From: Pirellulales bacterium
GTDB taxonomy: Bacteria; Planctomycetota; Planctomycetia; Pirellulales; UBA1268
Assembly (NCBI GenBank): GCA_040397585.1
Contig: JBBAVS010000010.1
Location: 1 to 60,824 of the forward strand
Direction of reading: 5' to 3'
DNA length: 60,824 nucleotides
Each line of letters starts with the position of its first letter. The stretch's first letter is position 1. Positions 8,083 through 27,848 of the stretch are shown piece by piece. A model generated the notes under the pieces. That model saw only the letters and a program-made list of their open reading frames with translations, made no database searches and was not told the DNA's origin. A program made the position numbers and the translations under genes.

Positions 8083-10080
8083 ATGCGCCTCTGCGCCCGC
8101 CGGCTCCCGTGTGTCGTCGTCGTGATCGCCGCCGCCCGCCTCGCCGGCGCCGCCGAGGTGCGGCCCAGCTGGGAGTGTCTGCCGGAGGACACGGCGGCGA
8201 TGGTGCGGATGCCCCAGCCGGCCGAGTTTCTCGAGGCCGTCCGCGGACAGACGAAGTTCGGCGCGGTGGCGCTGGCTGCACCGCGGCTGAAAGCGTCCTG
8301 GAGCATGCTCGTCGATGCGGCGCGGAAAGACGCCCGGGGAGCCACCCTGCCCGACTTCGACGAGCAGCTCGCCACGTATGGGCTCGAACCGAGCGACCTG
8401 CAGGCTGCGTTTCGCGACGACCTGGGCGCCGGAGTCGTCGTCCGCCGCCGCGACGACGGCCTGCCGCCCCTGGTGATGGCGCTGGCGTGGCTGGAGCCGG
8501 GCGCGGAGCCGGCAGCGCGGCTGGTCACCGCGATGCAGCGGCGCGTCGAGGAGCGGAACGCCGCCGGCGAACCCGACGCACCGAAGCGGATCGACATCGA
8601 CGTCGCCGGCCACGAGGTGCTCTGGATGGTGGAGCCCATCCTGACGGTGGACACCGAGGGGCTCGACGTCGACGCCCAGGGCGAAGCGTTCGATGCCGAC
8701 GAGTTCAAGAAGCGGCTCGCCGAGCGGGTCGAGGCCCTGCGCGAGCGGATCCGCAACGGCCGGTTCGTGCAGGTCGGCGAGACGCACACCTTCCTGGCGC
8801 GGCTGGGTAGCCGCCTGCTGGCCGGTCAGACGATTCCCGATCCGGCCGCCGGCGCCCGCCGCGGCGCCGACGGAGACCGCGATTTCGCGGTGGAAAGCGG
8901 TGCCGAGGAGGCCCGCAGGGCGTTCGAGCAGTTCCTCGCGGCCCACGCGGAGTCGGGCCCGGCCCCGCTGGCCGAGGTGCTCGCCGTTCCCGGCATGGCG
9001 GCGGCGCTGCCGCCGGGCGTTCCGCTCCTCGACGTGGTCGTCGATCCGCGCGTCCTCGTGAACGCCTACGGCCACGAGCCCACCAAGGCGGCGCTGGGGA
9101 TGATCGGGGCCGACACGCTGGGGCCGGTCGCCTGGCGACAAACCCTCGACGATGGCCGCTACCGTGGCGGGCTGTTCGCCTCGCTGCCGGCCCCGCGGAG
9201 GAGCCTGATGCGCCTCCTCGACCAGGAGTGCGACGCCGCGGAGGTGCCGTCGTTCGTGACTCGCGAGGCGATCGACTTCTCGCAGATCTCGCTCGATCTC
9301 GGCAAGGCCTACGAGACCGTCAAGGAATATGCGGTGGCCACCGGTGGCGAGCAGACGGCGAACATGTTCACCGCGGTCGAGATGCAGGCCCAGGGGTGGC
9401 TGGGCGTCGAACTCCCGCGGGTGCTCGCATCGCTGGGCACACGCCACTGGCTGGTGAGCTACCCGCCGAGGGTCGCGGAGGCCTTCGCGGAGGCGCGGCA
9501 GGCACGCGGCCGCGCCGGCGGCCAGCAGGCGCGGCAGATCGCCGACCGCTTGGCCGTGGTCTGGCAGATCAGCGACGACGGTCCGCTGGGCAAGATCCTG
9601 CAGCGGCTCGCCGGCATGGCCGGCGGCGAACTCCAGGAGGAGCAGGGCTTTCGCGGTGTCCGCCTCCCCGACGGACCGGCCGTGTTCCTCGGACAGGATC
9701 ACCTCGTGGTCGGCATCGGCGCCGACTCCCTCGAGAAGACGCTCACCGCGATCCGCAACCCGCCCGCCGGCGAGGCATCGCTCCGCGAGAGCGATGTGCC
9801 CCGCCGGGCCGCCGAGCTGCTCGCACTGGAACCGGCGCGGCTGTTCGGCCTCAGCGACAGTTCGCGGTCGGGCGGCACGCTCGGCGTGCTCCGCGAGATG
9901 CTGCGGTCGCTCGAGCCGGAGGACGTCGAGGAGTCGTACCGCGACCTGCTCGCGACCGCGCAGAAACTGCTGCCGAGTGACGACGAGATGGAGGGCATGT
10001 TCGGCGTCGGCGCCACCACGCTCCGCGCCGACGACGACGGCGTGTCGTTTCAGACCGCCTGGGAAATGCCGGCGCCGTAG
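8083..10080 (+). CDS. Hypothetical secreted protein (665 aa), third gene of the FG-GAP/protease operon
   Basis: Signal-peptide-like N-terminus MRLCARRLPCVVVVIAAARLAGAAEV and coding-like composition throughout. Same strand, 54 bp after the protease gene. No domain recognised by eye. Confidence 0.65.
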   Translation: MRLCARRLPCVVVVIAAARLAGAAEVRPSWECLPEDTAAMVRMPQPAEFLEAVRGQTKFGAVALAAPRLKASWSMLVDAARKDARGATLPDFDEQLATYGLEPSDLQAAFRDDLGAGVVVRRRDDGLPPLVMALAWLEPGAEPAARLVTAMQRRVEERNAAGEPDAPKRIDIDVAGHEVLWMVEPILTVDTEGLDVDAQGEAFDADEFKKRLAERVEALRERIRNGRFVQVGETHTFLARLGSRLLAGQTIPDPAAGARRGADGDRDFAVESGAEEARRAFEQFLAAHAESGPAPLAEVLAVPGMAAALPPGVPLLDVVVDPRVLVNAYGHEPTKAALGMIGADTLGPVAWRQTLDDGRYRGGLFASLPAPRRSLMRLLDQECDAAEVPSFVTREAIDFSQISLDLGKAYETVKEYAVATGGEQTANMFTAVEMQAQGWLGVELPRVLASLGTRHWLVSYPPRVAEAFAEARQARGRAGGQQARQIADRLAVVWQISDDGPLGKILQRLAGMAGGELQEEQGFRGVRLPDGPAVFLGQDHLVVGIGADSLEKTLTAIRNPPAGEASLRESDVPRRAAELLALEPARLFGLSDSSRSGGTLGVLREMLRSLEPEDVEESYRDLLATAQKLLPSDDEMEGMFGVGATTLRADDDGVSFQTAWEMPAP

Positions 10081-10142
10081 CCCGCGGCGCACAAGGGCCG
10101 ACGTCGGTGCAGTTCGGCCATAGGCATCGAACGTTCGCGAGG

Positions 10143-10574
10143 CCCCGCAGCCGGCCGGAGACATGCTCGGCGCCGGCGGCACTTGTGAGTTCGAGGCTCT
10201 GACGGAATGTCCGCGCCCGGCGTCCACAAGTGTCACCGTCTTCTGCGCGTGCCTCCGATCCGGCTGCTGCCCCCACACCATGAACTCAGCGAGGGGCTGA
10301 CCGTACCCCGAGAGCCGGGCTATGGGCGGGCACCGATCCGCCGCAGGCGGATTGGTCGGCGGAGCCAGGATGGCGAAGCGCAGCGGACATGCAGAGAGCG
10401 TCGGGCAGGATGCCCGACGCGAACGTCCGGCGACGGGGTATGGTCAGCCCCGAGCGGCGCAGCGCACAGGTTGAAAACCTGTGCCCACGTGGCGACGGGG
10501 CATGGGCAGCCCCGAGCGGCGCGGCGGCACCAGGCGGGGATGGGATCCCGCAGGTTGAAAACCTGCGGCCACTT
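10143..10574 (+). repeat. Intergenic modular repeat, copy A1 (long form)
   Basis: Shares an identical 39-mer (10143-10181 = 27416-27454) and several long near-identical blocks with 27416-27841. Shares its core with 19229-19466 and 24563-24812. Contains hairpins at 10399-10419, 10464-10484 and 10548-10568. Fills the gap between convergent genes and ends 12 nt from the sbcC stop. Confidence 0.9.
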
Positions 10575-10586
10575 CGGGGCCGGGAG

Positions 10587-13286
10587 TCAGATGCCGACGA
10601 TCTCGGTGCGGAACGCATCGCCGCGACGCACGATCCGCAGCTGGGCGGGAATCGCCCGCTGCATCTCGTCGACGTGCGAGATCACCCCCACGACGCGGCC
10701 TTCGTCGCGGAGCGACGCGAGGGTGGCCAGCGCGTACTCGAGCGTCTCGGCGTCGAGCGAGCCGAACCCCTCGTCGATGAACACCGTCTCCAGCCGCCGC
10801 CCGCCCTGATGCCGTTCCGCCGTGCGGGCCAGCGCCAGCGAGAGCGCGAGCGAGGCCATGAACGTCTCGCCGCCGGAGAGCGTGCGGGCGGGACGGCGGG
10901 TGCCGTTCCAGGTGTCGAGCACGTCGATGTCGAGGCCGGCGAGCGACTTCCTGTCGGCACCAGACGCCGCCCGCAGGAGCTCGTAGCGGCCGCGGGTCAT
11001 CGTCCTGAGCAGCTCCGTCGCCTCCGCCACAACCTCCTCCAGCACCGCGCCGAGCACCCAGCGATGCAGGGAGACCTTGTCTTCCGCATGGGCCATGCCC
11101 GACACCATCTGGTGGAGGCGATACGACGTCTGGAACGCCGCGTCGGCCGCAGCGGACCGCGCCGCCACGTCGGCGTGCCGGCCCGCGAGCCCGCGCGACT
11201 CCTGGAGGAGTGTCCGCGCCGATTCGTCCTCCGTCCGGGCCCGGTCGACCGCGCCGGTGAGTTGCCGCTGGGTGGCCTCGACCGCCGCGACGTCCGGCTC
11301 CGGCCGGCCGTCGAGGGCGGCAACCGCGGCCGCCAGCGCATCGGCCGCGGCCACGGCTTCCCGATCCGCGGCGGCCAGCGCGGCCGTCAGCGACGCGATC
11401 GTGGCTGGATCCCGGTCCGCGGCGGCGAGTTCGTCGGCGGTGGAGAAGGGTGACGCGGCGAGCGCCGCATCGAACCGCTCCCGCGCGGCAGCGGCCTTCT
11501 CCGCGAGCAGGCCCGCGGCCCCGCGCGCCGCCGCCCGCGCCTCGTCGGCTCGCTGGGCCGCGGCACGGGCCTCGTCGACGCCGCGGCGGGCGGTCCGCAG
11601 GCCGCGGTCCAGCGCCGCGCGGCTCTCCTCGAGCGTCTTGCGTTCGGCCTCGAGCAACTTCATGTCGGGCGGCGCCGGCATGGCGGCCAGCGCCGCGCGC
11701 GTCGCCTTGGTGGCCGCCTCCGCGGCGGCGAGCGTCGCCTGCATGGTCGCGGCGGCCTTCGTGGCCGCCTCGCAGGCCGCACGGGCCTCGGCCTGCCGCC
11801 CGCGGAGCGCCTCGAGCGCCGCCTCCGTCGGGGCATGCACGGTGGGCGCGGCGAGCCGCGGATGCTCCGTGCTGCCACACACGGGGCAGGCTGCGTGATC
11901 GGCCAACTCCGCCGCGAGCCGGGCCGCGGTGCCGGCGAGGTACCGGCCGGTCGCATCCGCCAGATCGGCTTCCACCTGCTGCAGCGCGTCGGCCGCAGCG
12001 CAGGCCGACGCAGCGGCCGTCCGCGAGGCCGCGACCGCCAGCGCCTCGCGGGATTTGGCGGCGGTGACGGTCTGGCCCGCCGCCTCGAATCGCTCCCGGG
12101 CGAGCGTCGCATCCTCGAGTCGCGTGGCGATCTCCCCGAGCCGCTGATCGATGGCGGTTGTCCGCGCGGCGGCCTGCTCCGCCGCCGTGCAGGCGGCCGC
12201 CCGCGCCGCCACGACCTCCGCGGTTGCGGCGGCGGCCTGGTCACGCTCCCGCTCCAGGGCCTCGGCGGTGGCCTGTTGGGTGGCGAGCGCCCGCCACTCG
12301 CGGAGCAGCCGCGCCGGCTCGCGGGCTTCGAGCGCGGCCGCGAGCACGGCCCGATCGGCAGCCCGGCGGGCGCGTTCGTCCTGCGCCCGGTGGTCGCGTT
12401 CCCGCGCCCCCTTCACGCCCTTGGCCAGCCGCTCGATCTCGCGCGCCTGCCCCAGGGCCTCGGTCGCTGAGGCATGCTGCCGGGTCACCTCCGTCAGCCG
12501 GGCCGCGGTGGCCGCGGCCGACTCCGTCGCGGCGGCGATCCGTTCCTGAAGCGCCGCCGCGACCGCGGTGTCGTCCAGGGCCGCCGCCCAGGCATGCCCG
12601 TGGAGCAGCGCCTCTCGTTCGCGCTGAACCGCGTCACGGTCGACATGCGCGCCGCTGCGTCGGGCCGCGACGAGCGTTTCGAACCGCTCGAAGGCATCGG
12701 TGCCGAAGATCCGCTTGAGCAGCTCTTCGCGGGCCTCGCCGGATGCGACCAAAACATCCCGAAACCGGCCCTGCGGGATCACGACCACGCGGCGAAACTG
12801 CTCCGCGGTGAACCCGGTGATGGCATGAACCTGATCGGTGACGTCGCGGACCTTCGTGGCGATCGGCTCCCAGGCCCCCGGGCTCCCTGCCGGCTCGTCG
12901 GTCTGGCGATAGAGCACCGCCTTGGCCGGCTCCCGCGTGCTGCCTCCGCCGCGGAGCGCCGCCCGCTCGTACTCCGGATTGCGTTCGCAGCGGTAGGTGC
13001 GGCCGCCGACGCTGAACGCCAGATCGACCTTCGTCTTCTGCTCGGCCGCCGATCGCGTGCACCGCAGCTCCGCACCGCTCCGGCCGTCGATCTGTCCCTT
13101 GGCCTGCCCTTCGCCGGTGGTCTCGCCGAACAGCGCGTAGCAGAGGGCGTCGAGGATCGTCGTCTTGCCCGCGCCGGTCGGGCCGGAGAGCAGGAACAGG
13201 CCGGCCGAACCGAGGCGGTCGAAGTCGATCACTTCCTCCCCCGCGAACGGCCCGAAGCCGGCGATCGAGAGCCTGTGGAACCTCAT
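10587..13286 (-). CDS. sbcC: Exonuclease SbcC (Rad50-like SMC ATPase)
   Basis: N-terminus MRFHRLSIAGFGPFAGEEVIDF...LLSGPTGAGKTTILDALCYALFG (Walker A). Long Ala/Glu/Arg coiled coil with the zinc hook CPVCGSTEHP. C-terminal LSGGETFMASLALSLAL and VFIDEGFGSLD (signature and Walker B). Overlaps sbcD by 4 bp. Confidence 0.9.
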   Translation of the reverse strand: MRFHRLSIAGFGPFAGEEVIDFDRLGSAGLFLLSGPTGAGKTTILDALCYALFGETTGEGQAKGQIDGRSGAELRCTRSAAEQKTKVDLAFSVGGRTYRCERNPEYERAALRGGGSTREPAKAVLYRQTDEPAGSPGAWEPIATKVRDVTDQVHAITGFTAEQFRRVVVIPQGRFRDVLVASGEAREELLKRIFGTDAFERFETLVAARRSGAHVDRDAVQREREALLHGHAWAAALDDTAVAAALQERIAAATESAAATAARLTEVTRQHASATEALGQAREIERLAKGVKGARERDHRAQDERARRAADRAVLAAALEAREPARLLREWRALATQQATAEALERERDQAAAATAEVVAARAAACTAAEQAAARTTAIDQRLGEIATRLEDATLARERFEAAGQTVTAAKSREALAVAASRTAAASACAAADALQQVEADLADATGRYLAGTAARLAAELADHAACPVCGSTEHPRLAAPTVHAPTEAALEALRGRQAEARAACEAATKAAATMQATLAAAEAATKATRAALAAMPAPPDMKLLEAERKTLEESRAALDRGLRTARRGVDEARAAAQRADEARAAARGAAGLLAEKAAAARERFDAALAASPFSTADELAAADRDPATIASLTAALAAADREAVAAADALAAAVAALDGRPEPDVAAVEATQRQLTGAVDRARTEDESARTLLQESRGLAGRHADVAARSAAADAAFQTSYRLHQMVSGMAHAEDKVSLHRWVLGAVLEEVVAEATELLRTMTRGRYELLRAASGADRKSLAGLDIDVLDTWNGTRRPARTLSGGETFMASLALSLALARTAERHQGGRRLETVFIDEGFGSLDAETLEYALATLASLRDEGRVVGVISHVDEMQRAIPAQLRIVRRGDAFRTEIVGI

Positions 13287-17281: not shown

Positions 17282-18070
17282 ATGCCGCTGCGGGCCTTCC
17301 TCCTGGGAGCGGTCGTGCTGATGCCCATGCCGCTGGCGGCCGAGGATCCGGCCATCGACGCCTTCGAGTCACGCCGCGTGACCGTGGCAGAGGATGGCGC
17401 GCCGGTCGAGTTTCGCTATCGCCTGCTCCGGCCGGCCACGACCGCAGCGGACACGCGCGCCCCCGTGATCCTGTTCCTGCATGGTGCGGGCGAGCGGGGC
17501 AACGACAACGAACGGCAGCTGAATCACTTTCCGAAGATGATGGCGGAGGCTTCCCAACGGACCGCGCATCCCTGCTTTCTCATCGCCCCCCAGTGCCGCC
17601 CGGAGCGTTCCTGGAGCGTGCTCGACTGGAAGACCAAGCGGCCGGCGGCCCTGCCCGACACGCCGACGACCGACATGGCCGCGGCCCTGGCCGCCCTCGA
17701 CGCCGTGCTCGCTGCGGAGCCTGGAGCCGACCCCGATCGCGTCTACCTCACCGGCCTGTCGATGGGCGGCTACGGCAGCTGGGACCTCGCGGCCCGGATG
17801 CCCGAGCGGTTCGCCGCCGTGATCCCGATCTGTGGAGGAGGAGACGAGGCCACGGCGCACCGGCTCGCGACGCTGCCGATCTGGTGCTTCCATGGCGAGG
17901 ACGACCCGCTCGTTCCCGTCGGTCTGTCGCGGTCCATGATCGCCGCCATCAAGGCCGCCGGCGGAACGCCCATCTCCTCGGAGCTGCCGGGCGTGGGCCA
18001 CGACTCATGGTCGCCGGCGTATCGCAATCCCGCGGTGCTCGACTGGCTGTTCGCCCAGCGGCGGCGGTAG
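17282..18070 (+). CDS. Secreted alpha/beta-hydrolase (esterase/peptidase S9-like)
   Basis: Signal peptide, VILFLHGAGERGNDN, nucleophile elbow GLSMGGYG, and a C-terminal FHGEDDPLVP...GVGHDSW (Asp/His). The start is 1 nt after the upstream stop. Confidence 0.8.
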   Translation: MPLRAFLLGAVVLMPMPLAAEDPAIDAFESRRVTVAEDGAPVEFRYRLLRPATTAADTRAPVILFLHGAGERGNDNERQLNHFPKMMAEASQRTAHPCFLIAPQCRPERSWSVLDWKTKRPAALPDTPTTDMAAALAALDAVLAAEPGADPDRVYLTGLSMGGYGSWDLAARMPERFAAVIPICGGGDEATAHRLATLPIWCFHGEDDPLVPVGLSRSMIAAIKAAGGTPISSELPGVGHDSWSPAYRNPAVLDWLFAQRRR

Positions 18071-18146
18071 CCACACGCGCGGGCGAGCCGGCCGCCATCC
18101 CCAGCGCTCACGCGATGGGGCTTCCTGAACCCGCTGCGACGGCGAC

Positions 18147-19109
18147 TCACTCGGGGAAGAGCCGCGTCGACAGATACCGCTCGCCGAGGTCGGGCAGCAC
18201 CACGACGACGAGCTTGCCGGCGTATTCTGGCCGACGGGCCACCTGCAGCGCCCCCCAGGCGGCGGCGCCGCAGCTGATGCCGCACATCAGTCCCTCGCGC
18301 TTGGCGAGCTGCCGGGCCGTCTCCATGGCATCTTCGTCGTCCACCTTCACCACCTCGTCGATGATGTCGAGGTTGAGGATGTCGGGAATGAATCCGGCGC
18401 CGATGCCCTGGATCGTGTGGCGGCCGGGCTTGATCGGCTGGCCGGAGAGCTTCTGGGTGATCACGGGGCTGTTGGCCGGCTCGACCGCCACGACCTTGAG
18501 GCCCGGCTTCTTGGCTTTGAGGGTCTCGCCCACACCGGTGATCGTGCCGCCGGTGCCCACGCCACAGACGACGACATCCACCTGCCCTTCGGTGTCGGCC
18601 CAGATCTCCTCCGCCGTCGTCCGCCGGTGCACGTCGGGGTTCGCCGGGTTCTTGAACTGCTGTGGCATGAAGAACTGCGTGCTCGAGCGGCTGATGTCCT
18701 CGGCGTGCCGCACGGCGCCGGGCATCCCCTCGGCGGCCGGCGTAAGCACGAGCTCCGCCCCGAGGGCCTTGAGCATCCGCCGACGCTCGAGGCTCATGCT
18801 CTCGGGCATGGTGACCCGCAGCTTGTAGCCGCGGGCGGCGCAGACGTAGGCCAGGCCGATGCCGGTGTTGCCGCTGGTGGGCTCAATGATGACGGTGTCG
18901 GGGCCGATCAGGCCGTCGCGCTCGGCCGCGTCGATCATCGCCCCGGCGATGCGGTCCTTCACGCTCCAGAGCGGATTCATGTTCTCGATCTTGGCGGCGA
19001 CGGTGGCCACGCAGCCCTCGGTGACCCTGCGGAGCAGCACCAGGGGCGTGCGGCCGATGCACTGGGTAATGTCGGTGCGGATGCCGGCGGGCAGCTTGGC
19101 GGTGACCAT
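18147..19109 (-). CDS. cysK: Cysteine synthase A (O-acetylserine sulfhydrylase)
   Basis: [26 protein letters not shown]..., the PLP-lysine context [21 protein letters not shown] and [10 protein letters not shown]. This is only the C-terminal 320 aa of the 1411-aa track ORF. ATG at 19109. Confidence 0.95.
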
Positions 19110-19228
19110 GAATCCCTCCCGTGTCTCGTCGCGGGCAGCCTCCGGCCCTTCGCCGGCGCCGCCCGCAGCATCGGCATTATCGGCACCACCGGCCAGAAAA
19201 TGCAGCCTCAGTGATCGGCACAGGGAGC

Positions 19229-19466
19229 GCGGGGCCGCCCGTGCCCCGAGAGCCGGCGTTTGTTTCCTCCGCGAGTCAGGATGACGAAGCGGAGGAAACA
19301 CCGAGTGAGCGGAGGGCAGGATGCCCGCAGCGAGCGTCCGGCGACGGGGCGCGGGCGGCCCCGAGCGGTGGGGCGGGCCACACTTTCCGCAGGTTGAAAA
19401 CCTGCGGCCACTTAAAACCTGCGGCCACTTGAAGACCTGCGGCCACTGGCGATTGGGCTTCCTGAG
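19229..19466 (+). repeat. Intergenic modular repeat, copy B1 (short form)
   Basis: Collinear with the reverse complement of 24563-24812. Has an 11-bp-stem hairpin GTTTCCTCCGC...GCGGAGGAAAC (19262-19299), a 9-bp-stem hairpin (19387-19407), a 17-nt tandem triplet (19397-19447), and the terminal motif GCGATTGGGCTTCCTGAG. Ends 11 nt from the stop of the 19478-20134 gene. Confidence 0.9.
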
Positions 19467-19477
19467 CGCGTGGCCAG

Positions 19478-20134
19478 TTACGGCAGCCGCTTCACGCGGA
19501 TGTTGCGGTAGTGGATCTCGCTGCCGGGATCGTGGGCCTGCAGGGCGAAGGTGCCCTGGGAGAGCTTCCGCGTGCCCGTCACCCCATCCGGCTCGACGAA
19601 CTCGAAGAGCACCCGGCCGTCCACCGCCACGCCCACGGCCTTGCCGTTGACCATCACCTCGAGCGTGAACCAGGTATCGTCCTTGGCCGGCGGCGTGAAG
19701 TTCTTGACCACGTTGTAGAGGCTGCCGGTGCGGACGGGATCCTGCTGGGAGTTGTTGACCTGCACCTCGTAGCCCTGGGCCGGCCAGCCGTCCGGCTGGA
19801 AGGCGGTGTGAATGAAGACGCCCGAGTTGGCGACCGGCTTCGTCAGCACCTCCGCCTTGAGGTGGAAGTTCTTGAACTCTTCGGGCCGCGCCGGATCGAC
19901 GCCCACGTAGAAAAGGTGGCTGCGGGGCCCCTTGCAGACGATCGTCCCGTCCCGCACCGACCAGCTGGCGGGGCTCTCGTTGGCCTTCCAGCCCGTGAGA
20001 TCCGTGCCGTTGAACAGGTTCGCGAAGCCCTCCTCCACGGCCCGTGCCGGGTCCGCCGCAGCCGCCAGGGCCACCAGGAAGACCGCCGCTCCGATAGCCT
20101 GCCGAACCACTCCTGGCATACGCTCGTAGATCAT
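19478..20134 (-). CDS. DUF1080 (3-keto-disaccharide hydrolase-like) secreted protein
   Basis: ATG at 20134 gives [32 protein letters not shown], a signal peptide. It is followed by [10 protein letters not shown]...W.V.DG.I...NSGVF...GYEVQV...[20 protein letters not shown], the characteristic DUF1080 pattern. Confidence 0.85.
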
Positions 20135-24538: not shown

Positions 24539-24562
24539 CAGAACGAGCCCGACGCTCATGCC

Positions 24563-24812
24563 CTCAGGAAGCCCAATCGCGTAAGCGATGGGGATCTCGT
24601 GGCCCGCCCCACCGCTCGGGGCTGCCCATGCCCGTCGCCACGTGGCCGCAGGTTTGCAACCTGCGGTGCCCCACCGCTCGGGGCTGCCCATGCCCGTCGC
24701 CGGACGCTCGCTGCGGGCATCCTGCCCTGCGCTCGCTCGGTGTTTCCTCCGCTTCGCCATCCTGGCTCGCGGAGGAAACAAACGCCGGCTCCCGGGCACG
24801 GGCAGCCCCGAG
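24563..24812 (-). repeat. Intergenic modular repeat, copy B2 (short form, inverted)
   Basis: The reverse complement aligns along its whole length with 19229-19466. It has the same 11-bp-stem hairpin (24742-24779), a 9-bp-stem hairpin CCGCAGGTT-TGC-AACCTGCGG (24646-24666), a duplicated GGCGACGGGCATGGGCAGCCCCGAGCGG unit, and the terminal GCGATTGGGCTTCCTGAG motif. Confidence 0.9.
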
Positions 24813-24845
24813 CTCGTCGCGCGAAAGGCTTGAGCAGCAGCTCGG

Positions 24846-27415: not shown

Positions 27416-27841
27416 CCCCGCAGCCGGCCGGAGACATGCTCGGCGCCGGCGGCAATGAGGTCTCCGACCCACCTGCGGTGTGTGAGTTCAAGGCGCCAAC
27501 GGAATGTCGATGTCCGGCGTCCACAAGTGTCACCGGCTTCTGCGCGTGCCTCCGATCCGGCTGCTCGCCGTCAAGAGGGGCAAGCCATTGGAAAGGATCC
27601 GCGAGGGACTGACCGTGCCCCACCCACCAGGAATGAACTCAGCGAGGGGCTGACCGTGCCCCGGGAGCCGGCCTCGCTGGCCAGCGCAGCCAGGATGGCG
27701 AAGCGCAGCCAGCGCGGAGTGAGCGGATGCCACGATGGCATCCGCGAACGTCCGGCGACGGGGTATGGTCAGTCCCGAGCGGCGCAGCGCACAGGTTGAA
27801 AACCTGTGCCCACGTGGCGACGGGGCATGGTCAGTCCCGAG
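27416..27841 (+). repeat. Intergenic modular repeat, copy A2 (long form)
   Basis: See copy A1. It has the identical 39-mer, conserved blocks interrupted by 27-nt and about 56-nt insertions relative to A1, and hairpins at 27723-27745 and 27789-27809. It ends 7 nt from the acs stop. Confidence 0.9.
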
Positions 27842-27848
27842 CCCCCGA

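Follow-up and report, generated by a model that had tools for sequence, protein, structure and literature searches.

A short hairpin repeated throughout a Pirellulales genome is very probably the palindromic unit of a GT(A/G)G-headed REP family

When the two arms of a short hairpin change in step from copy to copy, is the structure kept for an RNA, for a site in double-stranded DNA, or for something else? The question is raised by five 21-nt hairpins in the window, by which we mean the whole stretch of 60,824 nucleotides analysed here, on contig C10 of a Pirellulales draft genome. An earlier note had placed these hairpins and had pointed out that their two stem versions differ at positions 1 and 3, with the partner bases changed in step. 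Pattern matching and reading of the sequence returned exactly the same coordinates for all five, and the paired changes are plainly seen in the window. The core CAGGTT-NNN-AACCTG matched five times (at 10467, 10551, 19390, 24649 and 27792); over 100 dinucleotide-preserving shuffles the mean number of matches was 0, and none of the 100 reached five. Folded as single-stranded DNA, each copy closed a 3-nt loop with a 9-bp stem, with energies between -9.2 and -10.9 kcal/mol (z between -2.0 and -5.6). The note had also described a loop that varies, GAA versus TGC/GCA, over a stem that is kept. The difference is real, and the TGC copy (24646) is a unit on the opposite strand, whose loop reads GCA in the common orientation. 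Further features had been missed: an asymmetric tail, CCACGT or CCACTT, is conserved at every window copy, the 19387 copy is trailed by two tandem half units, and all five hairpins sit inside larger mosaic repeats, adjoining a structured repeat that we call module X (Table 1). All five are found in spacers between called genes or in a stretch, 18070-20133, where no gene was called.

Table 1. Hairpin units and companion repeats in the window, with positions counted from its first letter
Feature	Positions	Strand	Composition	Basis or remark
Probable REP unit, rare GCA stem type	10464..10488	+	hairpin GCACAGGTT-GAA-AACCTGTGC at 10464-10484, tail CCAC at 10485-10488, then GT	
Probable REP unit, dominant CCG (type A) stem	10548..10574	+	hairpin CCGCAGGTT-GAA-AACCTGCGG at 10548-10568, tail CCACTT at 10569-10574	
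Probable REP unit, type A	19387..19413	+	hairpin CCGCAGGTT-GAA-AACCTGCGG at 19387-19407, tail CCACTT	
Two tandem half units (3' arm and tail, without 5' arm)	19414..19449	+	AAAACCTGCGGCCACTT at 19414-19430, degenerate GAAGACCTGCGGCCACTGG at 19431-19449	directly after the 19387 unit
Probable REP unit, type A, opposite orientation	24642..24666	-	head GTGG at 24642-24645, hairpin CCGCAGGTT-TGC-AACCTGCGG at 24646-24666	TGC is GCA when the tail is on the right
Probable REP unit, GCA type	27789..27813	+	hairpin GCACAGGTT-GAA-AACCTGTGC at 27789-27809, tail CCAC, then GT	sequence equal to the 10464 copy
Module X	10289..10457	+	structured repeat of ~140-170 nt closed by terminal inverted repeats, directly upstream of a probable REP	DNA fold
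Module X, second copy	19227..19368	+		
Module X, third copy, reverse orientation	24674..24813	-		
Module X, fourth copy	27642..27781	+		
Solo 27-nt unit	10491..10517	+	GGCGACGGGGCATGGGCAGCCCCGAGC, equal to the right terminal repeat of X, between two probable REPs of one spacer	repeat family D3

The hairpin is far from confined to the window. Over the whole genome (G000; a 4.27-Mb draft in 272 contigs, 69.6% G+C, 94% complete) the core occurs 901 times and the reversed control pattern 0 times. This family makes up the bulk of all perfect hairpins with stems of at least 8 bp: with 8-bp arms and 3-nt loops, CGCAGGTT was counted 496 times, TGCAGGTT 234, CACAGGTT 75 and GGCAGGTT 42, and the next unrelated hairpin 23 times. 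In 603 oriented copies with a GAA or TTC loop, the tail after the stem was conserved base by base (frequencies C.99, C.93, A.93, C.93, T.76, T.81) and the flank opposite to it was not. The tail CCAC(T/G)T is a GTGG head on the other strand; read head first, the unit measures 25 nt and consists of the 4-nt head GTGG, a 9-bp stem and a 3-nt loop. The inner six base pairs, CAGGTT/AACCTG, are constant. Types are told apart by the loop and the outer three pairs, which are CCG or CCA in type A and GTG or GGG in type B; to these is added the rare GCA type, whose exact 21-mer (GCA/TGC) occurs only 4 times in the genome, three times with a GAA and once with a TTC loop. Among 853 full units, CCG was counted 499 times, GTG 238, GGG 45 and CCA 30. 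The tail sets the orientation of 866 of 882 copies, 430 on the plus and 436 on the minus strand, and the loop follows it genome-wide (GAA 334 times with plus, TTC 328 times with minus).

Pairing was assessed on sites anchored solely on the core of the 3' arm and the tail (AACCTG-NNN-CCAC), so that palindromes were not preselected. Among 1166 such sites, 780 had nine of nine Watson-Crick pairs, 49 had eight and 17 had seven, which together are 846 full units; the approximately 320 sites with six or fewer pairs are half units. Where a 5' core could be recognised (858 units), pair 1 was C-G (533) or G-C (293), pair 2 was C-G (536), T-A (239), G-C (47) or A-T (5), and pair 3 was G-C (796) or A-T (32). 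Pairing reached 96% at each outer position, compared with 49-53% (pairs 1 and 2) and 89% (pair 3) expected from base frequencies, and the mutual information of the two most variable outer pairs was 0.87 and 1.06 bits. At least eight fully complementary outer stems coexist: CCG, GTG, GGG, CCA, GCA, GGA, GAG and CAG. These types are subfamilies copied many times, so that independent compensatory events number roughly eight rather than hundreds. The two GCA copies of the window belong to a rare A-T subfamily whose outer pairs are often imperfect (CCA..TGC 15, GCA..TGG 15, GCA..TGT 9).

Could the copies simply fall into at least two sequence subfamilies in which pairing is unconstrained? Copying does inflate the counts of paired combinations, as most units belong to the few abundant types CCG, GTG, GGG and CCA. 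However, every abundant type is fully complementary, the rare GGA/TCC, GAG/CTC, CAG/CTG and GCA/TGC are likewise, and the set of complementary stems built on this core is enlarged by those of related species (GGACAGGTT, GGTCAGGTT and CGGGTT/AACCCG). With pairing at 96% where about 50% is expected, we give this explanation practically no credence. Stem variants that break the pairing, whose genome-wide tabulation the earlier note had proposed as a check, turned out not to be numerous. Its view that conservation acts on pairing rather than on a peptide agrees both with these frequencies (780 of 846 units perfectly paired) and with the extragenic location of at least 92% of the cores.

That location was determined with a crude GC3-based scheme of gene calling made for this analysis (2308 genes, 71.5% of bases), by which 72 of the 901 cores fell inside genes: 51 within 200 nt of a start that is probably over-long, 3 within 60 nt of a stop and 18 in the interior. 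Units lie mostly at the 3' ends of genes: of 311 convergent spacers 87 (28%) carry them, and the share falls to 82 of 1057 (7.8%) for tandem and to 17 of 354 (4.8%) for divergent spacers. Such a concentration would suit a hairpin kept mainly for an RNA role, as a terminator or a stabiliser of mRNA 3' ends, with its spread being secondary; as DNA the hairpins are stable, at -9 to -11 kcal/mol, and effects on mRNA stability and termination have been reported for E. coli REPs in parts of two studies (PMC3733652, PMC3479197). The depletion from divergent spacers, however, could equally reflect selection against hitting promoters, and several observations speak against such a role. Instead of the T-run of a Rho-independent terminator (a U-run in the transcript), the stem is followed by CCAC and two conserved T (76% and 81%). 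Orientation is random, both overall and in tandem spacers, where 76 units have the orientation of the upstream gene and 107 the opposite one. Mismatches of the G-T kind are no commoner than A-C (17 versus 16), and there is therefore no strand-specific signature of RNA wobble pairing. Rfam 15 yielded nothing above the gathering score in the whole window except a tRNA, and its best match in 10080-10600 had an E value of 0.075 and 20 bits, against a threshold of 46.5 bits. Finally, sister species are hundreds of copies apart, as would be expected of a mobile element more than of a conserved regulator. An RNA role as the main reason for conservation is accordingly improbable, and we found no supporting sign for the earlier suggestion that structure is selected for a dedicated RNA or cruciform function.

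A double-stranded site for a dimeric protein (a nucleoid protein, a regulator or a restriction-modification enzyme), or a cruciform, is a further candidate, in which the matched changes would express two-fold symmetry. A perfect inverted repeat around a fixed 3-nt centre has the appropriate shape, and E. coli REP/BIMEs are reported to bind several proteins (PMC2817692). The unit is nevertheless asymmetric, with a tail of 4-6 nt on one side only, and its half units consist of one arm plus the tail. Further, a dimer that reads sequence would not tolerate at least eight complementary sequences in the outer pairs, and in relatives the unit flanks RAYT genes, as described below. We regard a dimer site as highly improbable.

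The arrangement of the units is also informative. Scoring gave 432 clusters, built from 853 full (F) and 341 half (h) units; 151 of the clusters are a single full unit. Units occur singly, as inverted doublets of A and B, in homotypic tandem arrays, with half units trailing them, and at junctions with module X. Inverted doublets were either heads-out (204) or heads-in (74), and none joins two units of one type. The heads-out class is made of CCG+GTG (157), CCG+GGG (23), CCA+GTG (9), CCA+GGG (7) and a few odd pairs, with a spacer of 25 nt in 112 of the 204; CCG+GTG is also the leading pair among the heads-in doublets (54 of 74). Neighbours in the same orientation are mostly homotypic (CCG-CCG 49, GTG-GTG 14). 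Half units are nearly always found on the tail side of a full unit (Fh 116, Fhh 31, Fhhh 10, Fhhhh 3), at a period of 18-21 nt that is equal within the array in 47 of 67 arrays. These periods suggest that half-unit and tandem arrays arose by local tandem duplication or slippage, not by repeated insertion. The scan for half units was based on AACCTG and left out variants made of head and 5' arm, such as those at C218:3700-4003, where tandem 19-nt repeats of a B-type head and 5' arm (GTGGGTGCAGGTGCTTGAA, three copies) are followed by a complete B unit.

Module X, the frequent companion, carries internal hairpins of 9-11 bp with 3-nt loops, and the DNA fold of 10280-10590 reached -102.5 kcal/mol (z -7.2). 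The genome holds 138 copies of its core, 91 of them with a REP unit nearby; conversely, 128 of the 432 REP clusters have an X core no more than 200 nt away. The 27-nt solo unit family, D3, has 6 copies in the window, one of them at 27816-27842. Some additional observations concern this neighbourhood. Copies of the X core (10359-10459) are 85-96% identical throughout the genus, compared with 65-80% for the neighbouring genes. Upstream of module X the shared repeat is extended by a stretch of 85 nt that is 89% identical between 10184-10268 and 27481-27565, and a longer X-containing form (~430 nt) has about 27 copies in the genome. A second REP-like family, formed by CAGGAAGC, an 8-9-bp stem and a GNRA loop, has two units in the window (about 19449-19470 and 24560-24600), beside REP clusters.

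In 41 related genomes that we drew, the core was abundant in a few species of the same genus (342 copies in G010, 271 in G004) and was counted 0-24 times elsewhere. Further members of the genus gave 660 (G165), 652 (G183), 111 (G182), 39 (G138) and 25 (G190) copies, and 0-2 in most others. The same hairpins carry a GTAG head in G004 and G010, for instance GTA-GCACAGGTT and AACCTGCGG-CTAC, as read on 21 and 38 copies, respectively, from 10 stretches per genome. Counts of AACCTG-N3-4-TAC extend this to other sisters (G165 691, G183 689, G010 355, G004 292), compared with 24 in G000, where the control gave 11. Conversely, G000 has 828 CCAC-tailed units, while the next highest numbers among 151 genomes of the family are 30, 15 and 13, and G004 has 3. 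The head is therefore GTGG in 93% of G000 units and GTAG on the same stems in the sister species. At a single locus, the spacer downstream of the ortholog of the 8083-10080 gene contains one GTAG-headed unit of GCA type in G165 and in G183, and no unit within the stretches examined of G004, G182, G177, G175 and G023; synteny of the second flanking gene is kept only in G165.

It is conceivable, and we propose it tentatively, that the whole REP population, partners A and B together, was re-tagged from GTAG to GTGG since the split from the sister species. Because two separate heads changed alike, the simplest cause would be a shift in the head and cleavage-site preference of a RAYT that is absent from the assembly. 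Part of the work on E. coli TnpA-REP proposes that A3 and G4 of the head specify its CT cleavage site (PMC3479197); by that guide rule, cleavage would have shifted from between C and T to between C and C. Heads of both kinds have been described before: in the portions of PMC3733652 that concern them, GTAG-type REPs are reported in Planctomycetes (R. baltica), with the head mutated to GTGG in Opitutus terrae.

RAYT genes flanked by the hairpin were found in sister species. Y1 genes were searched with PF01797 and NF047646, in six frames over G000 and also in five relatives. In none of the 24 Y1 loci first examined (G000, G004, G010, G011, G019 and G029) was the hairpin beside the gene; other repeats, or none, were found there. 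One G019 Y1 gene is flanked by a close variant, GTAG-CCGCGGGTT-TT(C/T)-AACCC(G/T), and a search with its protein over 68 genomes of the genus found homologs in 15. In G183 (locus L061), a RAYT of 221 aa, in which the HxH and Y motifs are present, has GTAG-CCGCAGGTT-GGY-AACCTGCGG to either side, four units on one and a single unit on the other, each accompanied by a GTG-type (B) partner. G138 and G190 have a RAYT flanked by the same core with 4-nt loops. Among the six genomes with more than 100 copies, only the G183 assembly contains a cognate RAYT. A profile made from nine such RAYTs retrieved 206 relatives from metagenome contigs, of which 80 were kept, and CAGGTT-core hairpins with GTAG or GTGG heads are present at 18 of these 80 loci; the way in which GTGG heads are distributed over a tree of 26 RAYTs requires two or more changes.

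A side observation concerns half of those 18 loci (L090, L099, L101, L102, L103, L107, L109, L119 and L150), where one to four hairpins lie in frame within the RAYT coding sequence itself. They are located just after the HxH motif (MPSH.HWVFRP) and encode GQV(A/G)NLP repeats, with an open frame and 0 stops, as for example in L150:1201-2058. A literature search brought up no paper describing REPs in frame inside rayt genes.

In G000 the six-frame search found two solid Y1 genes and two weak matches (E values 0.066 and 0.38), and no RAYT flanked by the CAGGTT-core hairpin in an assembly that breaks at the locus syntenic with the RAYT of a sister species. One of the two, at C31:30556-30972 (locus L001:1050-2100), is RAYT-like, with 72.5 bits to NF047646 (below the 80-bit cut-off) and an intact open frame of 260 aa. 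A tblastn search of the genome with five cognate-type RAYTs matched only this C31 gene, at 26-33% identity, and no ortholog. Its G+C content is below that of the genome, and it is bracketed by an A+T-rich inverted repeat, AAAGGTGTCAGGAACCTTT, with two copies upstream and three downstream; this is a third repeat family, of about 9-20 copies, and the G004 ortholog of the gene has similar flanks. The other, at C47:56-607 (locus L002, C47:1-830), is an IS200-like Y1 gene bracketed on both sides by units of CAGGAAGC, stem and GNRA loop, and gene and units may constitute the REPtron of that family.

These results leave room for a relic or trans-driven family, in which the cognate RAYT was lost, leaving the ~850 GTGG-headed units either to decay or to be moved by the unrelated RAYT on C31. 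The assembly indeed contains no cognate RAYT, the C31 frame is intact, and REPtrons can be deleted in some strains, according to sections of PMC3733652. However, the palindrome is still perfect in 92% of full units and the head is preserved in 93%, unlike in an old, unattended population, and the C31 RAYT has its own, different flanking repeats. Moreover, the assembly breaks exactly at the place that the RAYT occupies in G183. The neighbours of that gene map to contigs C34 (left-hand, 90% identity) and C218 (right-hand, 85%); C218 ends inside an A+B doublet array ~340 bp after the ortholog of the right-hand neighbour, and on C34 a run of N begins 23 nt after that of the left-hand one. Units lie within 150 bp of 147 of the 544 contig ends. 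We therefore judge a relic or trans-driven population unlikely, though less so than the RNA or dimer explanations. The repeats interrupt other assemblies as well: metagenome contigs over the window, from four DNA runs, stop at them, with a summed depth there of ~50-100 times that of the flanks, and no insertion polymorphism was readable in these four runs, whose contigs break at the repeats. Intervals of 350-3000 bp between units number 47 in G000.

Taken together, the head, the copy number, the clustering and the RAYT gene flanked by the unit in sister species identify the hairpin, very probably, as the palindrome of a REP family that belongs to the GT(A/G)G-headed superfamily; presumably it is maintained and spread by a RAYT that is active in G000 and acts on single-stranded DNA. 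The family shows several features by which REPs are recognised, namely a short palindrome, high and dispersed copy number, extragenic location, the GT(A/G)G head and complementary changes, and also those of BIMEs and REPINs, with two unit types regularly spaced in alternating orientation. The most likely reason for its conservation is that the transposase recognises the hairpin in single-stranded DNA. The RAYT, a HUH/Y1 tyrosine transposase, would bind the folded hairpin and the 4-nt head in single-stranded DNA, cut, and then rejoin nearby; only copies with a paired stem and an intact head would remain substrates and multiply. Selection of this kind would yield stem variants that stay complementary throughout even if they do nothing as RNA. 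The matched changes in the stem are genuine, but they are what a REP family is expected to show and do not point to a new RNA: as ordinary selfish DNA explains them, they should not be taken to reveal a novel RNA gene or regulator. Of minor interest are the strictly A+B composition of the doublets, the half units that trail full ones and the species-wide GTGG where the sisters have GTAG.

Other repeat classes were considered and rejected: a CRISPR-like array, as the spacers are of 3-60 nt and not unique; DNA uptake sequences, as the units are almost wholly extragenic, form hairpins and flank RAYT genes in relatives; and integron attC sites, as the order of the GTT/AAC core is reversed.

The closest known relatives are the GTAG-tagged REP superfamily and its REPtrons (Nunvar et al. 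2010, PMC2817692; Di Nocera et al. 2013, PMC3733652). The parts of PMC2817692 that bear on REP/RAYT systems describe a GT(A/G)G head, two inverted REPs flanking the gene, dimorphic REPs and complementary mutations that keep the palindromes; they also mention the E. coli rayt, bounded by two different units, Y and Z2, and Pseudomonas REPs with GTGG heads. As far as these portions of the two papers go, our family shares the perfect or nearly perfect palindrome with a 6-9-bp stem and GT(A/G)G head, the hundreds of extragenic copies, the coexisting complementary stem types, the dimers and clusters and the unit-flanked RAYT, here in sister species. It differs in that G000 has GTGG in 93% of units, no flanked RAYT in its assembly and frequent trailing half units. 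A stem with the CAGGTT core was not found in these portions of the two papers.

With the REP/BIMEs of E. coli (units Y, Z1 and Z2; TnpA-REP) the family shares a mosaic organisation, with units of two types following one another in alternating orientation; in G000, A+B accounts for all but a handful of the 204 and 74 inverted doublets, and none is homotypic. Extra non-REP motifs between units are also common to both. In the relevant part of PMC3479197, TnpA-REP requires both the head and the folded hairpin if it is to bind and cleave single-stranded DNA, so that in E. coli the two together are the substrate of a Y1 enzyme. On the other hand, E. coli units are imperfect palindromes with internal mismatches, whereas here the 9-bp stems are perfect around a 3-nt loop, and the short linker motifs of BIMEs contrast with a companion module of ~140 nt with a structure of its own. 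The REPINs of Pseudomonas fluorescens (Bertels and Rainey 2011, PMC3116915) resemble our family in their inverted doublets with a short fixed spacer as the likely mobile unit, in their GTGG-type heads and in their vertical, lineage-specific populations. In our case, in contrast, the halves of a doublet differ in stem type, and a doublet is therefore not one long perfect hairpin; further, about a third of the clusters (151 of 432) are single units.

The family explains a conspicuous feature of this genome, with ~1,200 full and half units and a quarter of the contig breaks. For annotators, these are repeats that fragment assemblies of these freshwater Pirellulales. For those who work on REPs and RAYTs, they provide a set of close species in which one hairpin carries GTAG or GTGG and the doublets are strictly heterotypic, with a sister species supplying the cognate enzyme. 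If the re-tagging of the whole population proved true, this species and its sisters would be a natural pair for testing the co-evolution of RAYT and REP.
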